Sequence record: OR544956
DNA length: 64,000 nucleotides
Origin: Escherichia phage vB_EcoM_EP57
Strand: one strand, 5' to 3'
Part shown: positions 48-11,750 of the stretch, piece by piece
Layout of the letters: every line of letters begins with the position of its first letter
Position numbering within the stretch: the stretch's first letter is position 1
Position numbers and translations under genes: made by a program
Notes under the pieces: model-generated
What the model was told of the DNA's origin: nothing
Database searches by the model: none
The model's input: the letters and a program-made list of their open reading frames with translations, nothing else

Positions 48-686
48 TTGGTATTAAAAGCACACACTTGCAGCACAATAGGCACTTACTTGTTAAGTTT
101 GGGCTGGTATGTTAATATCTTCTTCGGTGCGGTCATCCTTTTCTGTGCAGCTAAAATGGTATTTGCTGGAGATAATGACGCAGAAGTTGATTACTCTAAA
201 CACTGGGCTACCCGTATTGTTCGTAAACTGTTCCCTGTATCTAATAAAATGGATGGGGAGAAGTTCTTCACAATCGAAAATGGTGTTCGTGTAGCAACTC
301 CAGCTTTGGTTTGCGTATTCGTGATGGAAATGGTGGATGTAATCTTTGCAGTAGATTCGGTTCCAGCGGTGATCGCAGTGACACAAGAACCCCTGCTTGT
401 ATTCTCTTCGATGTTATGTGCAATCTTAGGTCTACGTGCTCTGTTCTTTGTTCTTAGTGTCGCACTGAAGTATCTGGTTCACTTGGAGAAAGCAGTTATT
501 GTGGTTCTGGTGTTTGTAGGCGTTAAACTGATGTATCACCCGTTTGCAGAAACATTGCATGAGAAAATGAGTTTCCTGCCAGCACATATTGATCCAACTA
601 TTAGTATGTATATCGTGCTTGGTACTTTGGCCCTTGGTGTTATTGCAAGCTTTATCTTCCCTGAAAAAGAAGAAGCTACTGTTTAA
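48..686 (+). CDS. terC: TerC-family integral membrane protein, C-terminal part; the N-terminal part (LSVDNL motif) reads in another frame from position 2 and the gene starts upstream of the window
   Basis: Translation contains the second TerC signature VDVIFAVDSVPAVIAVT...FSSMLCAILGLRALFF; frame 2 at positions 2-112 reads LSVDNLVVFVAVFASFGIK; the two frames overlap at 48-115. Confidence 0.6.
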   Translation: MVLKAHTCSTIGTYLLSLGWYVNIFFGAVILFCAAKMVFAGDNDAEVDYSKHWATRIVRKLFPVSNKMDGEKFFTIENGVRVATPALVCVFVMEMVDVIFAVDSVPAVIAVTQEPLLVFSSMLCAILGLRALFFVLSVALKYLVHLEKAVIVVLVFVGVKLMYHPFAETLHEKMSFLPAHIDPTISMYIVLGTLALGVIASFIFPEKEEATV

Positions 687-2311: not shown

Positions 2312-2902
2312 ATGCATACCGAGAGAGACTTGCAACTCTTGTGGTGGGAAGTGATGCAGGAAATAAAAGAAGATTTTCCTGTTTACTACAACATGTTACG
2401 TGAAGCAGGATATAAAGCTTGTGTTAGAAACAAAGTGAATAACTCTTTCGGTTGGTGCAACTACCGAGATAAAATTGTTGTTGTAAATTGGCACTTGCAT
2501 AAGAACTCCACAAGAGATATGATCGTGGATACAATGAAGCACGAAATTGCTCATGCTATTGATGGTTGTATGGGTAAGTTTAGTAGGCACGGTGCTCATT
2601 GGCAAAAACTGGCAGCAGAATTAGGGGCTAATCCTAAAGCCACTTCCAAAGAGCCGTTGAACCACGAATATAAATATGTTCTTGTTCTGGTAGATAGGTT
2701 TGCGACAAGATGTGTTAGAGGTTATAATCGTAAACCTAATCGCATGTACCCAGGTAAGCAACCTAATATGTGGTTGAAATCAGATAAAGAAGGGACCGAA
2801 GGAAAATTATGGTTGTATAAATGGGACGATTGGGTTAAAGTAGCTAAAGAGTACGGTGTTTCACCATATATAAGAGATGCAGAAGAGGAGAATGAAGAAT
2901 GA
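2312..2902 (+). CDS. SprT-like zinc metallopeptidase domain protein (putative)
   Basis: HEIAH motif in a context (KHEIAHAIDGCMGKFSRHGAHW) resembling SprT-family proteins. Confidence 0.4.
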   Translation: MHTERDLQLLWWEVMQEIKEDFPVYYNMLREAGYKACVRNKVNNSFGWCNYRDKIVVVNWHLHKNSTRDMIVDTMKHEIAHAIDGCMGKFSRHGAHWQKLAAELGANPKATSKEPLNHEYKYVLVLVDRFATRCVRGYNRKPNRMYPGKQPNMWLKSDKEGTEGKLWLYKWDDWVKVAKEYGVSPYIRDAEEENEE

Positions 2903-4011
2903 CAAGTCCATTTTTAAAAGCAGCTACTGGTGGTCAGAAGAAGCCTGAAATGAGCGTATTTGCTGCAACAACAGATGCAAGTAAATCTGTATTCGCTCCA
3001 AGCGTGTTAGATGCCAGTCCTGTTTATGCACCAGCGGCACCGCAAGAAGTTCCAGTTTTGCCTTCTATGACCCGACAAGAGATCGAAGAGATTGGGGCAG
3101 AGGCAGGAACAACCTTGCGTTCCTTGAATGCCGAGGTATTAAAACATCAACGTAGTAATCAAGGCGATCAGATGAGTGAACGACTCACAGCTTTGATTAA
3201 ACAGGCAAAACAACTTGATCCAAACTCTATTAAACAAAGCAAGGGTATTACTAAACTCATTAAAAAAGTTATGGGTATGAAAGAAGACCTGTTTGGGGAG
3301 TTTGATAATGTTAATAACCGTATTGAAGAGTTGGTAAAGAACCTTCAAATGGATATTCGCAAAGAAGAAGATTCCTTGGTATATCTTGAAAAGCTACATC
3401 AAGCTATTGGACAATATGCTGCAAGTTTGAACCGAGATATGCAGCTTCTAACAGCAACCTATGAAAAAGAAGAACAAGCTTTGGCTGCTCTTCCAGAAGA
3501 TGCAGTAGAACAGCGACAAGTGATCCGAGATACTTTGGATCTTCTGGAGATTCGTATTGCAGATTTAAAAGCATTGCGCCTACTGTGTGTCCAAATGGGA
3601 CCGCGTGTACAAGGTATGCAAAAAGTTTCTGCAAGCTTAATGCGATCTGCGCGTAACATAGTAAATAATGTTATTCCTGCTTACTCTGCTAACTTCTCAA
3701 TGTATATAGAGAGCTTACGTCAAATGAAAGCAGCAGAGACGCAGAATAACGTTCTTGATGAATTTAACCTGGCAATTAAACTGGGTAGCGATCTTGCCAC
3801 ACAGAATCAGATCGAAGCAGCAGCACTGGCTAACCGTCAAGTGTTGGATATTGAAACTCTGCGTCACGATCAGGAAAACTTGGTTAAGATGTTGGAAGAA
3901 ACTAACCGCATCAATACGGAAGCCCGTGCTGCTCGTGTTGATTATATTAATGAAGTTCAATCTCTGGAAGACGGGATGGTAGCTGCTGTGAAACGAGGGC
4001 TTGGTAAATGA
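2899..4011 (+). CDS. TelA-like coiled-coil protein (putative toxic-anion-resistance family)
   Basis: 370 aa, coiled-coil rich; pattern LKALRLLCVQMGPRVQGMQKV ... LDIETLRHDQENLVKMLEE resembles TelA/KlaA family; sits inside a Ter-like gene cluster. Confidence 0.4.
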   Translation: MTSPFLKAATGGQKKPEMSVFAATTDASKSVFAPSVLDASPVYAPAAPQEVPVLPSMTRQEIEEIGAEAGTTLRSLNAEVLKHQRSNQGDQMSERLTALIKQAKQLDPNSIKQSKGITKLIKKVMGMKEDLFGEFDNVNNRIEELVKNLQMDIRKEEDSLVYLEKLHQAIGQYAASLNRDMQLLTATYEKEEQALAALPEDAVEQRQVIRDTLDLLEIRIADLKALRLLCVQMGPRVQGMQKVSASLMRSARNIVNNVIPAYSANFSMYIESLRQMKAAETQNNVLDEFNLAIKLGSDLATQNQIEAAALANRQVLDIETLRHDQENLVKMLEETNRINTEARAARVDYINEVQSLEDGMVAAVKRGLGK

Positions 4012-4545
4012 GAATCCGTATCTATATAATTGATGAAGACATTGGTGTCCGTTATGATGACGAAAAACGATTCGCACCGATGGGAGGTATATATCCCCCA
4101 AGTGTTCTAGCAGTTTGTCGTGATTGTTATATTTATGAAGGTTGTCGTAACTTCCGTAAATTCGAACTCCTTGCAGATATTGACTTCAATGAGGAGGAGG
4201 AGTAATGAAAATATTACGAGTGAATATTGAAACTGCTTGGTGTGGATGCAATGAGGTTGTGGATATCGAAATTGAAGATGATATGTCTCAAGAGGATATA
4301 GAAGATCTTGCGCACGAAACCTTTCAGGATTATTGTAATTACGGGTTCCATATTTTAGAGGAGGAAGAAGATGTTTAATTGACTCGACAGGAACTGATCA
4401 CAATCATTGAAGATGCTTTTATTGATGGCTGGAATACACAAGATAATGACTGGGGTGGACCCGAAGCTTTTCTGGAACATCATAAAACTTATGGAGACTC
4501 TTGTGAAACCACTGTAGCTCTTGATAATCTGAAGGAGGGTTTGTA

Positions 4546-5109
4546 ATGGGTTGTTTTAGCTTTTTGTGCAAAGAATCGGGCAAAGCTGCCCTTTCTACTT
4601 CTTTCGACGGATCACCTTGCTACCTCTTTCTTTTGAAGGACGGTGTTGTTATTGAAGAGATGTATGGCAACTATGATAGTTATGGTTGTGTTTTCTCTGG
4701 AAAGGAGGATGAAAACGGCGTTCGTGAACGATTTGAATGGGCTATGGATTGGGGTAAGGTTTGTGATTTGATGCATTCCTCAAATCCAAGGGACGGTATC
4801 GCTATGGTGCTGGAAGAGTACTTTACAGGTGAAATCCCTACAGAACAATCTGACGGAGATCCTAACCAAGGTTGGGGTGATGGTGAAGAAGATCCAGATT
4901 GTTTTTTCAGCACAGAAAAGAATAAGTTTAAACGTGTTGACAACCCTTATCACAAAGTGCATAATACTCTCATTGAAACAGAAGATGACAAGATGGAAAT
5001 TGAAGAAGATGATCCTCTTGTAACACTTCCTGTAAGTGAGTTACAAAAGATCACTAAGGAAGCTTACGATTTGGGCTTCAAAATTGGTAGAGGAGGTATG
5101 CGTGTTTAG
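4546..5109 (+). CDS. Hypothetical acidic protein
   Basis: ORF track; ggagggtttgtaATG context. Confidence 0.35.
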   Translation: MGCFSFLCKESGKAALSTSFDGSPCYLFLLKDGVVIEEMYGNYDSYGCVFSGKEDENGVRERFEWAMDWGKVCDLMHSSNPRDGIAMVLEEYFTGEIPTEQSDGDPNQGWGDGEEDPDCFFSTEKNKFKRVDNPYHKVHNTLIETEDDKMEIEEDDPLVTLPVSELQKITKEAYDLGFKIGRGGMRV

Positions 5110-5380
5110 ATTCAATATTCAAGAAGAAAAAAGTCAGGATTTACCTATTGCTTTCGAAGATCTTGACGTAGGGGCCACATTCATGTATTATGATGCCTAT
5201 GAAGACGCAGGGTTGGATACCTACCGTAACTTGGTGTTCATTAAAAATTCCACAAACAGTGCGATCTGTATTAATGGATCACTAGCACAACGAGGCTATA
5301 CTCATTGCATCCCACCAGATACAAATATGGTGGAAGTAGATTTAGAAGTTACCAATATTACACTTAAGAAGGAGAAATAA
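5102..5380 (+). CDS. Small conserved protein, paralog A (shares DLDVGxTF ... EVxLxVTxITLK with 6402..6671)
   Basis: GTG start at 5102 after ggtagaggaggt; paralogous to 6402..6671. Confidence 0.4.
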   Translation: MFRFNIQEEKSQDLPIAFEDLDVGATFMYYDAYEDAGLDTYRNLVFIKNSTNSAICINGSLAQRGYTHCIPPDTNMVEVDLEVTNITLKKEK

Positions 5381-5381
5381 T

Positions 5382-6176
5382 ATGTCCGAGAAAATCAGCC
5401 TGAAAAAACGTCAAGAAAACCTTGCTTTCTCTCTGAAAAAGAATAAGAACCTGAATGAAGGTAAGATTGTTCTTCGTGTAGCATGTGCTCTAGATATTTC
5501 TGGTAGTATGCATGGTCTATATTCTAGTGGGGTAGTGAGTGATTTTGTAGGTAAACTGCTTCCTTTTGGTATGCTGTTCGACGATAATCAACAAATTGAT
5601 ATGTGGGCCTTCAATACGAGTTCCCAAGAGCTTACTCCAGCAACAGCAGATGTTTACGATGACTATGTTGGTAAATGTATGCGTAATGTTCGTATCGGAG
5701 GTGGAACAAATTACGCCCCTGTAATGGCGGATATCTACGATGAGTATTTTGGCACTGTTACTAAATATATTACCACTAAACAAGTGGTACAAGAGGAGGC
5801 TCCAAAGAAAGGTTTCTTTAATCGTCTACTTGGTAAAACTGAAACAGTATCTGTAGAGCGTGAAAAGGTCGTAGCTGTATCTGAACCAGGTGCTGACGTT
5901 ACCCCTGGTGTTGTATTCTTCCAGACAGACGGTGAGAATGGTGATCCTAGTGCTGTTCGTCGTCTTATCGAAGAGAATAAGAATAAACCTATTTATTGGT
6001 TCATGGTTGGCGTTGGTAATGAGAAGTTTGGCTTCCTGAAAGAACTGGCAAATGCTTATGATAATGTTGGTTTTATTGGCATTAAAGATTTAGACTTGAC
6101 AGATTCAGAGCTTTATGACAAACTCTTATCTGAAGAGTTCGGAGAGTGGGTTGTTAAAGTAGGTGCTAAAAAATGA
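5382..6176 (+). CDS. von Willebrand factor A domain protein (TerY-like)
   Basis: MIDAS-like motif VACALDISGSM near the N-terminus; located next to TerD. Confidence 0.5.
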   Translation: MSEKISLKKRQENLAFSLKKNKNLNEGKIVLRVACALDISGSMHGLYSSGVVSDFVGKLLPFGMLFDDNQQIDMWAFNTSSQELTPATADVYDDYVGKCMRNVRIGGGTNYAPVMADIYDEYFGTVTKYITTKQVVQEEAPKKGFFNRLLGKTETVSVEREKVVAVSEPGADVTPGVVFFQTDGENGDPSAVRRLIEENKNKPIYWFMVGVGNEKFGFLKELANAYDNVGFIGIKDLDLTDSELYDKLLSEEFGEWVVKVGAKK

Positions 6177-6421
6177 TCGACGAGCTTGCCTCTCAAGTCA
6201 TAGAAAATTATTGGCGCGAGAGAGAAGCTTTCATTATGCGCAGTCTCAAAGAGTATTTCATTGGGACTGTGCGAATGGAAGATATTGTAAGTAGAGTAGA
6301 GATTCATGTATGGCCCGATTATGAAGAATGGGTTGACAAAGAAAATGAAAATGCTATAATTCTTCGTATATACAAACCGGAGATAACATTAGGAGGAAGA
6401 AGTGTTAAACTTCGAAATTGA
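6173..6421 (+). CDS. Hypothetical protein
   Basis: ORF overlapping the upstream stop (ATGA). Confidence 0.35.
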   Translation: MIDELASQVIENYWREREAFIMRSLKEYFIGTVRMEDIVSRVEIHVWPDYEEWVDKENENAIILRIYKPEITLGGRSVKLRN

Positions 6422-6671
6422 TGAGCAAAAAGTAAATAAACGATGCCTTACCATTAAAGATTTGGATGTAGGAGATACTTTCGTCTATGAAAATGCATTT
6501 GACGAAAATGGTTTAGACCTTAGTGAAATCATTGTTTATTTAAAAGTAGATGATGGGGAAAATGATTATTCTGCTGTAGAACTAAACCATCATGCACAAT
6601 TAGTATCAATCCAAAACACATCTAAGCTTTTGGAAGTAGAATTGACTGTAACTGGTATTACACTTAAATAA
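6402..6671 (+). CDS. Small conserved protein, paralog B
   Basis: Paralog of 5102..5380; ggaggaagaaGTG context. Confidence 0.4.
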   Translation: MLNFEIDEQKVNKRCLTIKDLDVGDTFVYENAFDENGLDLSEIIVYLKVDDGENDYSAVELNHHAQLVSIQNTSKLLEVELTVTGITLK

Positions 6672-6686
6672 TAGAGGAGACAAAAG

Positions 6687-7289
6687 ATGACTGATAAAAT
6701 TTCCCTGAAAAAAGGCTCTAGCGAAAAAATTTCCCTGAAGAAAGTTGCTCCGGCTCTGAAAGAACTACGCCTGGAATTCTCTTGGAAATCTGATTCTAAA
6801 CTAGATCTGGATGTAAGTGCACTGGTTTGTCGTCACAATGCCGCTGGCAATCCTGAAATGCTGTCTGCACGTCATCTGGTTTGCTATGCTAACAAGTTTG
6901 ATCCTGAACGTTCTACCTTCGCTGGTGACGATGTTCGTGATGGAACTGGCAGCATGGAGCAGATTGATATTACTCTGGCTAAAATCTCTCCTGATGCACA
7001 AGAGATTGCCTTTGTTCTGACCATTGATGATGATACAGGTCTGAAACGTTTTGGTCATGCTTCTGAAGGTATGCTTAAAATCTTCGACTCCGAGCGCAAT
7101 GTGGAAATTCTGGATTTTGACTTCCTGGCTCCTGAAGTAGCTGGCAACACAATCTGCCACGTGGCTTCCTTGGTTCGTGAAGATGGGGAATGGAAGCTGA
7201 AAGCATATGGTGTAGGTAAAGCTGGTCTGGATATTTGTGATGTGGTGATGGCCTTCGGTGGTAAAAAAGAATGGTATGAATGTCCGTAA
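6687..7289 (+). CDS. terD: TerD-family protein (tellurium-resistance TerD/TerZ/TerE-like)
   Basis: ISLKKGSSEKISLKK, DLDVSAL, IAFVLTIDD and EDGEWKLKAYGVGKAGL align with my recollection of E. coli TerD (SLSKGGNVSLSK, DLDASAF, IIFVVTIHD, NGEWKFRAVGQGYAGGL). Confidence 0.8.
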   Translation: MTDKISLKKGSSEKISLKKVAPALKELRLEFSWKSDSKLDLDVSALVCRHNAAGNPEMLSARHLVCYANKFDPERSTFAGDDVRDGTGSMEQIDITLAKISPDAQEIAFVLTIDDDTGLKRFGHASEGMLKIFDSERNVEILDFDFLAPEVAGNTICHVASLVREDGEWKLKAYGVGKAGLDICDVVMAFGGKKEWYECP

Positions 7290-7307
7290 TAATTAACAAA
7301 TGATTTT

Positions 7308-7327
7308 GAGGGGGAGAAATCCCCCTC
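7308..7327 (+). terminator. GC-rich hairpin gaggggg-agaaat-ccccctc after terD (terminator or conserved stem-loop)
   Basis: 7-bp G/C stem; a similar element occurs at 23447-23464. Confidence 0.4.
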
Positions 7328-7388
7328 TTGCAATAAAGCCTCTATCGTGTTATACTAGAAATTCGTTAACTTAAAAAGGAGGCAAAAT

Positions 7389-7910
7389 TTGCTGATAAAA
7401 AACTTTGTAACAGTTGCGTTACTATCCTTAACTGCTTTTACATTTACACCTGTTGTGGCGAAAGCCGAAGCTGCAAACGTAAAAACCGCTAAAGTAGTTC
7501 ACAAATGTACAAAGCAATATAATGATAAAATTCTATTAGCTTGTGCAATTTACGCAGAAGGTCGCGGTCTGGGTAAAAAAGGAATGAATGCCGTTGGGAA
7601 TGTGGTAATCAACAGAAGAAATGATACCTACTTCCCTAACACAGTCAGAGGAGTCTTGTTCCAGAAAGGGCAATTCTCATATGCGAAAACTTTTAACGTA
7701 ACAGAGAAAGATAAGTGGCAGGAAGCAAAAGCAATAGCGGAGCGTTTACTTTATTTAGAGAAACATTTTCCTGAATTGCGGTCTGTTTTAGATGTTACTA
7801 AAGGTGCTCTATACTTCAAGAAACGGAATATAAGAACACACTGGGAACGTGATATGCGTCTTGTTTATCGAGATAAAGTGCATGGTTTCTATCTACCAAA
7901 GGGGAGTTAA
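7389..7910 (+). CDS. Cell-wall hydrolase, SleB/CwlJ-like, with N-terminal signal peptide (candidate endolysin)
   Basis: Signal peptide MLIKNFVTVALLSLTAF; motif LACAIYAEGRGLG...NVVINR typical of Hydrolase_2 family. Confidence 0.5.
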   Translation: MLIKNFVTVALLSLTAFTFTPVVAKAEAANVKTAKVVHKCTKQYNDKILLACAIYAEGRGLGKKGMNAVGNVVINRRNDTYFPNTVRGVLFQKGQFSYAKTFNVTEKDKWQEAKAIAERLLYLEKHFPELRSVLDVTKGALYFKKRNIRTHWERDMRLVYRDKVHGFYLPKGS

Positions 7911-9177: not shown

Positions 9178-9861
9178 ATGGAAAATATTAAAATCGGAGT
9201 GGGTGTTATCACTGTAGGTGTCCGTCCGCTTAAAGACTACCTTGTAACAGATCCACGTGCAGATTTTCGAGTATTCAACGATCCAGATCGTAAAGGTGTA
9301 GCTTATGCCAGGAATGAACTTATGCACCAGTTTTATGAAGAAGGTTATGATTATTGGTTTATTTTTGACGACGATTGCTACCCAGTCATGGAGGGATGGG
9401 AAACATATTTTGTAGATCAAGCTGTCTCTGGAGGATGGGATTTCTTTGGTATGCCGGAGTACTTCAAAGATAAAGTTGTTGGAAGCAAAGGAGAAGTTAT
9501 TCTCTGGGAACTTGCAATGTGTCAATTTGCAATGTATTCTCGTGCCGTTGTTGAGAAGATGGGTTATTTCCGTCCTTACACTCACGGTTATGGTTTTGAA
9601 GATGCTGAATGGGGACACCGTTTGCAAGCTGCTGGTTTGAATCATGGTATTCAGGCAACACCTTGTCCACTTCGTATCATGGCTTATATCCACCCAGACG
9701 ATGTTTTTGGAAACAATCCTATGCCTTTTGCTAATCTGACAAAAGAAGAGAAAGAAGCTGCTATTGGGATTAACTGGGAAGAATATAAAGCATCTTTAGA
9801 GGATATTAAAAATGGGAAAATCCGAATTTCCTATGAGGAGGCACTAGCACATGTCAAATAA
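9178..9861 (+). CDS. Glycosyltransferase, GT-A fold (family 2-like)
   Basis: GVRPLKDYL...AYARNELM...DYWFIFDDDCYP (DxD-type motif). Confidence 0.5.
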   Translation: MENIKIGVGVITVGVRPLKDYLVTDPRADFRVFNDPDRKGVAYARNELMHQFYEEGYDYWFIFDDDCYPVMEGWETYFVDQAVSGGWDFFGMPEYFKDKVVGSKGEVILWELAMCQFAMYSRAVVEKMGYFRPYTHGYGFEDAEWGHRLQAAGLNHGIQATPCPLRIMAYIHPDDVFGNNPMPFANLTKEEKEAAIGINWEEYKASLEDIKNGKIRISYEEALAHVK

Positions 9862-10798
9862 AAAATGGTCTAAACTAAAAATTGATGCAAAACCTCACAG
9901 CGGTTGTGACTATCATCGTATTGTTATGCCATTTAACAACAATAATATTCAACCTAAGAAAGATGCTGTTGTGTTTAACCGTATCCACTCTAAAGGTGCA
10001 GAATACGTTTTATCTTTGAAACGTCAAGGTGTTAAGATTGTTGTAGATTTAGATGATTTCTACCAACTTAATCCAGAACATTATTTAGCAAGTCTATACG
10101 AGTCAAACACTCATGCTATTGTAGCTATGGTTAAGCTTGCGGATGTGGTTATTGTGACTACGGAATATTTGGCATATAAGATCCGTCACTTAAATAGGAA
10201 TGTTGTTGTGATCCGAAATGCACTTCCTTTTGATAGTGGACAATTCACTTTGTCAAATGATCGTTCATCCGGTACCCCTGTTGTATGGGCTGGCGGTGCT
10301 AGTCACGAACCAGACTTACGACTAGTCTCTAATACTTTCGATGATGAACTTCTTACTATTGCGGGATATGAAACATCACAAAGCATCACGGGACAAGAGT
10401 GGATTAAGATTCGCAGAAATTTACCAAATGCTAAATATAAAGCCGCTGTAAAAGATTTAGATAATTACATGAGTGTTTACGAAAGTCATGCTATTGCTAT
10501 AGCTCCTTTGGTAGATAACGATTTTAATAATTGTAAAAGTAATCTCAAAATCCTGGAAGCTGGAGCAAAAGGTATTCCAATTGTTTGTTCTAAGGTATTA
10601 CCTTATTTTAACCCTGTAGATGCTCGCGCTGTTGCTTACGCAGAGAATAAAGCAGAATGGCATTACGAAATTGTTAAGCTTCTTCGCAATCCAAACTATC
10701 GGGAAGATCGTGGCTTGTTCTTGGCTGAACATGTTCGAACACATTATAATCTGGCAGATGCAAACGAGTTGCGACGCCAGGTTATTGAAAGTTTGTAG
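9851..10798 (+). CDS. Glycosyltransferase, GT-B-like, tandem paralog 1
   Basis: Paralogous to 10806..11750 over the full length; C-terminal NNCKSNLKILEAGAKGIPIVCS resembles the GT-B nucleotide-sugar binding motif. Confidence 0.5.
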   Translation: MSNKKWSKLKIDAKPHSGCDYHRIVMPFNNNNIQPKKDAVVFNRIHSKGAEYVLSLKRQGVKIVVDLDDFYQLNPEHYLASLYESNTHAIVAMVKLADVVIVTTEYLAYKIRHLNRNVVVIRNALPFDSGQFTLSNDRSSGTPVVWAGGASHEPDLRLVSNTFDDELLTIAGYETSQSITGQEWIKIRRNLPNAKYKAAVKDLDNYMSVYESHAIAIAPLVDNDFNNCKSNLKILEAGAKGIPIVCSKVLPYFNPVDARAVAYAENKAEWHYEIVKLLRNPNYREDRGLFLAEHVRTHYNLADANELRRQVIESL

Positions 10799-10805
10799 GT
10801 GAAGT

Positions 10806-11750
10806 ATGGGACAAATAATTCTTGACAATCGTAACGGAATCAATTATAGTGTCTGCGATTTCCATAGGGTAGTGCTGCCTTACTCAAGGCAGTTCTCTTC
10901 ACAACCTAAACACAACGTTTTCGTTTTTAACGGGGTGCCAACAAAAGGTAAAGAGGGCTTTTTAGCCCTTAAAAACCTAGGCTTTAAAATGGTTATGGAT
11001 TTGGATGACTCTTTAGTTATTCCAAAAGGACACATGTTAGAAGGTATTTTTGAATCAGGTATTCGTGAACATTTAAAATGGTTTTTAGAGCACAGCGATC
11101 TTGTTACAACTACGACACCTGCTTTGCAAGTTGAACTTTCACAATACAATGATAATGTGCACATAATCCCTAATGGACTTCCTTACGATGAAGGTCAATT
11201 TGTGTTGACCCGTGATCGCTACTCCAAAACTCCATTAGTCTGGGCTGGAAGTGAAACACATAAACAAGATTTGGCTATCTTGCCCGATTTTGGTAAAGAT
11301 CTTACAATATGTGGTTTTCGTAGGGATTCTGAAGTTTTAAGTAGTCGTGAATGGTCTGTGATCAGAGAAAATGTAGCACCAACTTGTGTTTATGAAGGTG
11401 TAAGACCATATGCCAACTACATGGAATCTTACGATGGTCATCAAATCAGTCTTGCGCCATTGATTGATAACGTGTTTAATAATGCAAAAAGCAATCTTAA
11501 AATTCTTGAGGCAGGTGCTAAGGGTTTACCTTTGATTTGTTCTCCTCGTGAGAATTATCATACACAAGAGTTTAAAGATTTGTTATTCTTTGCTGAAACA
11601 CCTTCCGAGTGGAAAGATATTACGGAATACTTATTAAGTGCTCCCGATGTTTGCATGGAGAAAGGATTAGCATTAGCTAAGTATGTCAGGACTCATTATC
11701 ACATTGATGTGTTGAATGAGCGTCGTAGACTTTTATTTGAGGAGCTATAA
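10806..11750 (+). CDS. Glycosyltransferase, GT-B-like, tandem paralog 2
   Basis: NNAKSNLKILEAGAKGLPLICS; about 35-40 percent identity to paralog 1 by eye. Confidence 0.5.
   Translation: MGQIILDNRNGINYSVCDFHRVVLPYSRQFSSQPKHNVFVFNGVPTKGKEGFLALKNLGFKMVMDLDDSLVIPKGHMLEGIFESGIREHLKWFLEHSDLVTTTTPALQVELSQYNDNVHIIPNGLPYDEGQFVLTRDRYSKTPLVWAGSETHKQDLAILPDFGKDLTICGFRRDSEVLSSREWSVIRENVAPTCVYEGVRPYANYMESYDGHQISLAPLIDNVFNNAKSNLKILEAGAKGLPLICSPRENYHTQEFKDLLFFAETPSEWKDITEYLLSAPDVCMEKGLALAKYVRTHYHIDVLNERRRLLFEEL

Follow-up and report, generated by a model that had tools for sequence, protein, structure and literature searches.

What role do two related small genes have in a phage when each stands immediately upstream of a gene of the Ter type? 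The question is raised by a 64,000-nucleotide stretch of Escherichia phage vB_EcoM_EP57 (record OR544956; hereafter the window), in which one small gene (A, 5102..5380) precedes a vWA-TerF-like gene and a second (B, 6402..6671) precedes terD. A sequence-only reading had proposed that A and B are paralogs and that the repeated arrangement marks paired partner proteins. We find that the family of A and B is tied to the vWA-TerD cassette, and that a strict one-to-one pairing of small and large genes is not upheld, which leaves the proposal partly supported. Judging from sequence comparisons, we put at roughly 0.45 the probability that A and B are accessory or adaptor components of the vWA(TerF-like)-TerD cassette in phAPEC8/phi92-like myophages.

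Both open reading frames (ORFs) lie exactly where they had been placed and encode proteins of 92 (A) and 89 (B) amino acids (aa). In each, a GTG start codon follows a strong Shine-Dalgarno sequence (GAGGAGGT upstream of 5102 and AGGAGGAA upstream of 6402), and the same two coding sequences are called in public annotations of related phages, as hypothetical proteins. Pairwise comparison by BLASTP bore out the paralogy, with 32/93 identities (34%) and 54% positives over the full length (E = 2e-14, single comparison). The motifs that had been pointed out are present as well, the core reading DLDVGATF in A and DLDVGDTF in B and the C-termini EVDLEVTNITLK and EVELTVTGITLK, respectively. Both proteins match phrog_11278 (PHROGs v4) end to end (A, E = 4.2e-51, residues 1-92 on profile positions 1-92/92; B, E = 7e-45, residues 1-89 on profile positions 1-89/92), a family whose function is uncharacterised in that resource. 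A profile built from A and B found no third copy in the window. The genes downstream are also those named by the sequence-only reading, vWA-TerF-like after A (1-nt gap) and TerD after B (15-nt gap). The order of small gene before Ter gene is indeed repeated, but the repeat is not exact, since an ORF of 82 aa intervenes between vWA and B.

Searches of general databases placed neither protein in a known domain family. Pfam gave no match for A and only a sub-threshold match to DUF5006 for B (E = 0.046), and neither falls in a Ter family of Pfam (TerD PF02342, vWA-TerF-like PF10138, TelA PF05816, TerC PF03741 and TerB were considered). NCBIfam returned nothing for A or B, and PDB sequences no match below E = 0.3. 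The Pfam, NCBIfam, PADLOC and PDB-sequence searches were negative also for the 82-aa ORF and for a 187-aa ORF that precedes A, and PADLOC-DB held no match for A, B, the 82-aa ORF, the 187-aa ORF, vWA, TerD or TelA.

The two copies are of long standing. In a neighbour-joining tree the A (pre-vWA) clade has bootstrap support of 89-95% and the B clade 90%, with 21% support for the deep branching order of the family. Gene A is 65-66% identical in protein sequence to phi92 gp174, compared with 34-38% between A and B. As A and B fall into separate supported clades, the duplication is old; on the sequences at hand, the A/B split is older than the divergence of Phapecoctavirus and Justusliebigvirus, or else B was acquired from a phage of the type that carries its member in mid-position. 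A recent tandem or segmental duplication is ruled out by the unrelated upstream ORFs (the 82-aa and 187-aa ORFs have no similarity), by the low DNA identity of A and B, which rises only at the 3′ end and at the junction with the ribosome-binding site, and by the separate old clades. Ratios of nonsynonymous to synonymous substitution rates (dN/dS) are ~0.19-0.33 for A and ~0.1 for B, with 0.03-0.18 for TelA, TerD and vWA; these values are rough, the synonymous rate being saturated. By these sequence measures, A and B are genuine coding genes under purifying selection that evolve fast.

Linkage to the vWA-TerD cassette

A tblastn search of 50,697 phage records found the family in 126, nearly all of them Stephanstirmvirinae or phages of the same genome type under other host names. 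Records of Phapecoctavirus carry it at two places, those of Justusliebigvirus (phi92-like) and Klebsiella phage 05F01 at one. When 1.84 billion representative proteins were searched exhaustively with a profile, 37 matched, ~20 of which are proteins of 87-93 aa, the remainder being giant repeat proteins matched over a short motif only; in none of the databases searched in this way was the small domain fused to TerD or vWA. Among 185,579 species genomes (GTDB) the sole match was a 99%-identical contig of a metagenome-assembled genome, probably binned phage DNA. Scans of IMG/VR gave no further loci, and a scan of Joint Genome Institute (JGI) metagenomes returned only contig L009, already known. 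The phrog_11278 family is thus small and, as far as its sequences tell, apparently confined to phages. Over 100 deposited phage genomes list its members as hypothetical proteins (e.g. phi92 gp174 and phAPEC8 K7QLS7), and length and motifs are kept down to 23-30% identity.

We compared the gene order around family members in at least 12 loci, drawn from Phapecoctavirus, Justusliebigvirus, Klebsiella phage 05F01 and five metagenomic lineages of 23-35% identity. The window shares the order A, vWA, 82-aa ORF, B, TerD with phages SF1-1, vB_Ec-G1, phiWec179 and PsgM04F. In phi92 the order is gp174 (A-type), gp173 (vWA) and gp172 (TerD), and Klebsiella phage 05F01 has a small gene followed by vWA and TerD. 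The metagenomic contigs L007, L008, L009-11 and L013 read vWA, small gene, TerD, and L012 a small gene followed by TerD. Two further contigs depart from the window in copy number: L019, which is Phapecoctavirus-like and metagenomic, has three members, namely B and two tandem A-type copies before vWA (4728-5279 of that contig; 90 aa and 92 aa, 50% identical), and L020 reads A, vWA, 82-aa ORF, TerD, with no B. All inspected members stand either just before vWA or in the vWA-TerD interval. In these loci, adjacency to core Ter genes is therefore conserved, within one broad phage clade only.

This comparison bears directly on the idea of paired partners. What stands is the paralogy, the linkage to the cassette and the finding that each paralog heads a predicted unit of promoter, small gene and Ter gene; what does not stand is a rule of one small gene per large gene, because copy number and position vary among relatives. 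TerD has no preceding member in phi92, 05F01 and L020, and vWA has none in the metagenomic lineages, where each locus holds one member and no extra copies were found 5′ of vWA.

Several results weigh against a part for A and B in the cassette. A vWA-TerF gene occurs in 219 phage records, at least 93 of which have no detectable member of the small family. Klebsiella phage FBKp34, Caulobacter phage CcrBL1, Pseudomonas phage phiPsa374 and a faecal phage contig (MT836679) all carry vWA and TerD with no detectable member. Searches with hmmsearch and hhalign for cryptic members beside vWA (an 84-aa ORF of phiPsa374, L016 2659-2913, and ORFs of 110 aa and 85 aa in FBKp34, L014 2648-2980 and 2391-2648) were negative, the best candidate being the 85-aa ORF of FBKp34 (pairwise E = 0.006, probability 6%). 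As many phages have both vWA-TerF and TerD but no member of the family, the Ter proteins can do without it. Close relatives differ in the number of copies (1-3) and in position. The small genes also change much faster than TerD or TelA: among relatives their identity is 43-68%, compared with 80-91% for those two, and between the window and phiWec179 it falls from 91% (TerD) and 90% (TelA) through 73% (vWA) and 59% (82-aa ORF) to 52% (A) and 43% (B). Finally, the wider order TelA ... vWA ... TerD ... Hydrolase_2 is common to the window and the distant metagenomic loci, so that the linkage seen in metagenomes is partly inherited and not independently re-created.

These same results are what one would expect if A and B were independent small early products, such as host-takeover or anti-defence effectors, with no functional tie to Ter, their adjacency being inherited synteny and their duplication the ordinary expansion and contraction of a family. 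Variable copy number (including the loss of B in L020) and fast evolution are just as compatible with unrelated, host-directed early accessory genes, and the Ter-carrying phages that lack the family, together with the wider synteny, agree with this explanation too. It has more difficulty with the placement of the family, which is never found outside the vWA-TerD interval, even at 23-35% identity, and with a gene that switched from one side of vWA to the other yet stayed within the cassette. The failure to match PADLOC or anti-defence entries speaks against it as well, though weakly. Overall we hold this explanation to be possible but somewhat unlikely, and keep an accessory or adaptor role in the cassette as our preferred reading.

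Expression signals and predicted structure

In the window, the cassette appears to consist of two parallel units, one running from a predicted promoter at 4937 through A to vWA and the other from a predicted perfect promoter at 6333 through B to TerD (Table 1). The hexamers of the first (4937-4965) are kept in phi92, PsgM04F, L019 and L020, and phiWec179 has TTGACA-17-GATAAT at the corresponding place, intergenic there as the 187-aa ORF is absent. The second (6333-6360) is kept in phiWec179, PsgM04F and L019, and suggests, as a sequence match, that an internal promoter expresses B and TerD early; phi92, which has no B, carries TTGACT-16-TAAAAT in its vWA-TerD spacer. Both promoters are matches to the consensus only, which tempers the case for a cassette role, and strong promoters of sigma-70 type, read early by host RNA polymerase, would suit independent early genes also.

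The junctions with the large genes carry further signals. The stop codon of A (5378-5380) is separated from the vWA ATG (5382) by a single nucleotide, and the vWA Shine-Dalgarno sequence falls within the last codons of A. On account of this overlap and the 1-nt spacer, A would be translationally coupled to vWA. The position of the Shine-Dalgarno sequence also explains why the K/T-x-E-K tail is found in all members of the pre-vWA clade and is missing from the B and mid-position clades. Conservation of these coupling signals across genera is a point against independent early genes. The Shine-Dalgarno sequence of TerD is GAGGAG (6674-6679), and the DNA around the starts of vWA and TerD, ribosome-binding site included, is ~77% identical (5370-5408 compared with 6675-6713), so the likeness of the two units reaches beyond the small genes.

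A first AlphaFold run on an alignment of 8 sequences was unusable (predicted local distance difference test score, pLDDT, of 37.7) and was replaced by one on 18 diverse family members. The resulting AlphaFold2 model of A (pLDDT 84.1; predicted template modelling score 0.71) is a small beta-barrel with strands at residues 26-29, 46-48, 53-56, 67-69 and 75-79 and one helix at 30-36, from which we predict the fold class to be an SH3-like beta-barrel with one helix. Foldseek found nothing significant for this model in PDB. In BFVD its top match is the phAPEC8 orthologue of B, K7QLS7; the A model and an independent model of B therefore agree. The other BFVD matches are uncharacterised small phage proteins, and the sharing of a generic barrel with many unrelated proteins of this kind is again compatible with independent early genes.

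The predicted fold bears on two further explanations. The giant repeat proteins returned by the profile search (2,000-5,700 aa, matched in as many as 22 stretches) align over the DLDVGDTFxY segment, and the two that we checked are He_PIG/Big_9 and DUF11 repeat proteins, as though A and B were standalone Ig-/cadherin-like calcium-binding beta-sandwich domains (He_PIG/DUF11-type) akin to the repeats of giant surface proteins. Each match, however, spans only ~15-50 profile positions and owes its significance to summing over repeats; the targets have mutually unrelated folds, one being an ankyrin-repeat protein; no such Pfam domain is present in A or B; and the model is a small, putatively SH3-like barrel plus helix, not a sandwich of 7-9 strands. 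We rejected homology to the He_PIG, DUF11 and ankyrin giants as short-motif, repeat-summed matches, and regard the calcium-binding explanation as very improbable. Alternatively, an SH3/KOW/Sm-like barrel could bind nucleic acid, and A and B could then be cis-encoded autoregulators controlling translation or transcription of the Ter gene downstream in each bicistronic unit. The small proteins of the family are acidic (isoelectric point, pI, 4.3-5.5), and this strong negative charge disfavours an RNA-binding regulator, which we consider improbable, though less so than the calcium-binding domain.

For the preferred role in the cassette, the acidity of the small proteins has a counterpart in their neighbours. 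At their N-termini, vWA and TerD both bear a basic [IV]SLKK motif in two copies (MSEKISLKK...FSLKK, 5382-5441, and MTDKISLKK...KISLKK, 6687-6743), and the first 25 residues of the two proteins have a net charge of +4 to +8 in every genome that bears the family. In phages without the small family the N-terminal motif is acidic instead (LSLEK / LNLEK). The family itself has an invariant G-L-D loop (Asp39) and nearly invariant K48 and N58. The metal ion-dependent adhesion site (MIDAS) motif of vWA, DxSxS, is intact (ALDISGSM). In other vWA proteins the DxSxS motif of the MIDAS site binds an acidic residue of the partner.

A small adaptor or modulator of this kind, the likeliest role for A and B, may bind vWA, TerD or both, and binding would tune the assembly or activity of a membrane-associated Ter-like module of TerC, TelA, vWA and TerD. 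Two modes of docking can be imagined, both speculative: the invariant G-L-D loop might offer Asp39 to the vWA MIDAS site, or the acidic barrel might grip the basic N-terminal peptide, with its doubled [IV]SLKK, that vWA and TerD have in common. A more detailed version would make the family a hitherto unrecognised, phage-specific Ter small subunit, an acidic SH3-like adaptor seated in the MIDAS site and/or on the [IV]SLKK peptides, with A and B subfunctionalised, one per partner, and changes in copy number retuning the complex. We think this version doubtful, and less likely than independent early genes. Were it true, retuning by copy number could serve superinfection exclusion or interference with host-encoded Ter defence, and the small subunit would open the biochemistry of TerD and TerF proteins to study with just two or three proteins.

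The Ter-type region and its phage

The window belongs to a phAPEC8-like E. coli myophage of the genus Phapecoctavirus, subfamily Stephanstirmvirinae. Over region 4500-7400 it is 99.8% identical to Dompiswa phage TSP7_1 and at least 99% identical to 16 further phAPEC8-like Phapecoctavirus phages. Near-identical Phapecoctavirus genomes have been deposited as phages of Campylobacter, Acinetobacter, Klebsiella and Pseudomonas; these odd host names are probably contaminants or misattributed hosts, and the host labels of the clade need care.

The first 8 kb hold an abbreviated Ter-type set on the + strand, made up of TerC, TelA, vWA-TerF-like and TerD genes (Table 1).

Table 1. Genes and predicted signals of the Ter-type region of the window.
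Feature	Position	Strand	Remarks
TerC-family membrane protein gene, 3′ part	48..686	+	PF03741, E = 9.4e-22; cut by window start; opens the Ter-like region
SprT-like protein gene	2312..2902	+	
TelA-family gene (toxic anion resistance)	2899..4011	+	PF05816, E = 3.2e-33
187-aa ORF	4546..5109	+	phrog_14928 (unknown function); very acidic, net charge -20
Predicted sigma-70-like promoter	4937..4965	+	TTGACA-17-CATAAT (11/12); inside 187-aa ORF, 137 nt 5′ of A
Paralog A	5102..5380	+	92 aa; GTG start; pI 4.4; phrog_11278, pre-vWA clade
Shine-Dalgarno sequence of vWA	5370..5374	+	AGGAG; within last A codons (K-K-E-K tail)
vWA-TerF-like gene	5382..6176	+	264 aa; PF10138, E = 1.6e-37
82-aa ORF	6173..6421	+	phrog_22387 (unknown function); between vWA and B; not a phrog_11278 member
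Predicted perfect sigma-70 promoter	6333..6360	+	TTGACA-16-(TGc)TATAAT (12/12, extended -10); inside 82-aa ORF, 42 nt 5′ of B
Paralog B	6402..6671	+	89 aa; GTG start; pI 4.3; phrog_11278, pre-TerD clade
TerD-family gene	6687..7289	+	200 aa; PF02342, E = 3.2e-28; N-terminus MTDKISLKKGSSEKISLKK
SleB/Hydrolase_2-type cell-wall hydrolase gene (annotated endolysin)	7389..7910	+	conserved 3′ neighbour of the cassette

At the 5′ end, the TerC gene is annotated as 975 nt at the matching position in relatives. In Shigella phage SF1-1 (L001, 1-865) the depositors annotated a phosphoribosyltransferase and a phosphatase just 5′ of TerC, a pair that matches the nucleoside-like signal-biosynthesis genes assigned to fuller Ter systems in a review of jumbo phages (PMC7824862).

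The two ORFs that precede the small genes overlap their neighbours closely. The final 8 nt of the 187-aa ORF overlap the start of A; this ORF is kept in phi92 (gp175) and absent from phiWec179. The 82-aa ORF shares 4 nt with the end of vWA and 20 nt with the start of B. Contig L020, which lacks B, still has it; it is missing from phi92 and 05F01 and evolves fast (39-59% identity among relatives).

On the 3′ side, PF07486 occupies in the metagenomic loci the position equivalent to that of the cell-wall hydrolase. Between TerD and the hydrolase, phi92 has an extra gene of 200 aa, gp171 (L003, 6788-7390), which has no Pfam match and is absent from the window; we considered it as a second TerD and rejected this, as it is not TerD-like. 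Further downstream, two adjacent ORFs of ~315 aa (9851..10798 and 10806..11750; window 9851-11750) are evident paralogs of another kind, both annotated in relatives as glycosyltransferases of phrog_7162 and preceded by two other glycosyltransferase genes.

Comparison with known Ter systems

Sets of Ter (tellurite-resistance-type) genes occur widely among bacteria, plasmids and phages. A family confined to the vWA-TerD pair of one phage clade is a candidate binding partner and could reveal how vWA and TerD are assembled or regulated. Should A and B prove to be unrelated early accessory genes, they would be one more duplicated hypothetical family of phages. The increment is modest either way, the genes being already in a PHROG, and a specific complex, if found, would raise the interest. 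To genes already catalogued in one PHROG the analysis adds two old clades, an exclusive linkage to vWA-TerD, a predicted fold class and a predicted promoter architecture. We found no earlier description in the literature of the split between pre-vWA and pre-TerD/mid-position clades or of the exclusive vWA-TerD linkage.

Abbreviated Ter clusters have been described in virulent phages, among them jumbo phages and Klebsiella phage phiKp34, with a membrane-linked stress response and superinfection exclusion as proposed roles (PMC7824862, PMC8386662). The window shares TerC, TelA, a TerF-type vWA protein and TerD with those clusters. Unlike the window, the described clusters list no small SH3-like component, and those of phiKp34/FBKp34 and of the Caulobacter and Pseudomonas phages have no detectable member. 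On this sequence evidence, the small family is an addition peculiar to phAPEC8/phi92-like phages and a handful of uncultured relatives.

For the small proteins themselves, the SH3-like small beta-barrels brought into comparison were the ribosomal uL2 SH3-like domain, the DtxR/IdeR C-terminal domain, FeoA, the KOW domain of EF-P/eIF5A, HspQ/YccV and Tudor. In the bacterial ter operon, TerF is a TerD domain fused to a vWA domain, whereas here vWA and TerD are separate neighbouring genes; both proteins of the window carry the TerD-like basic N-terminal [IV]SLKK repeat, and vWA keeps the MIDAS DxSxS motif.

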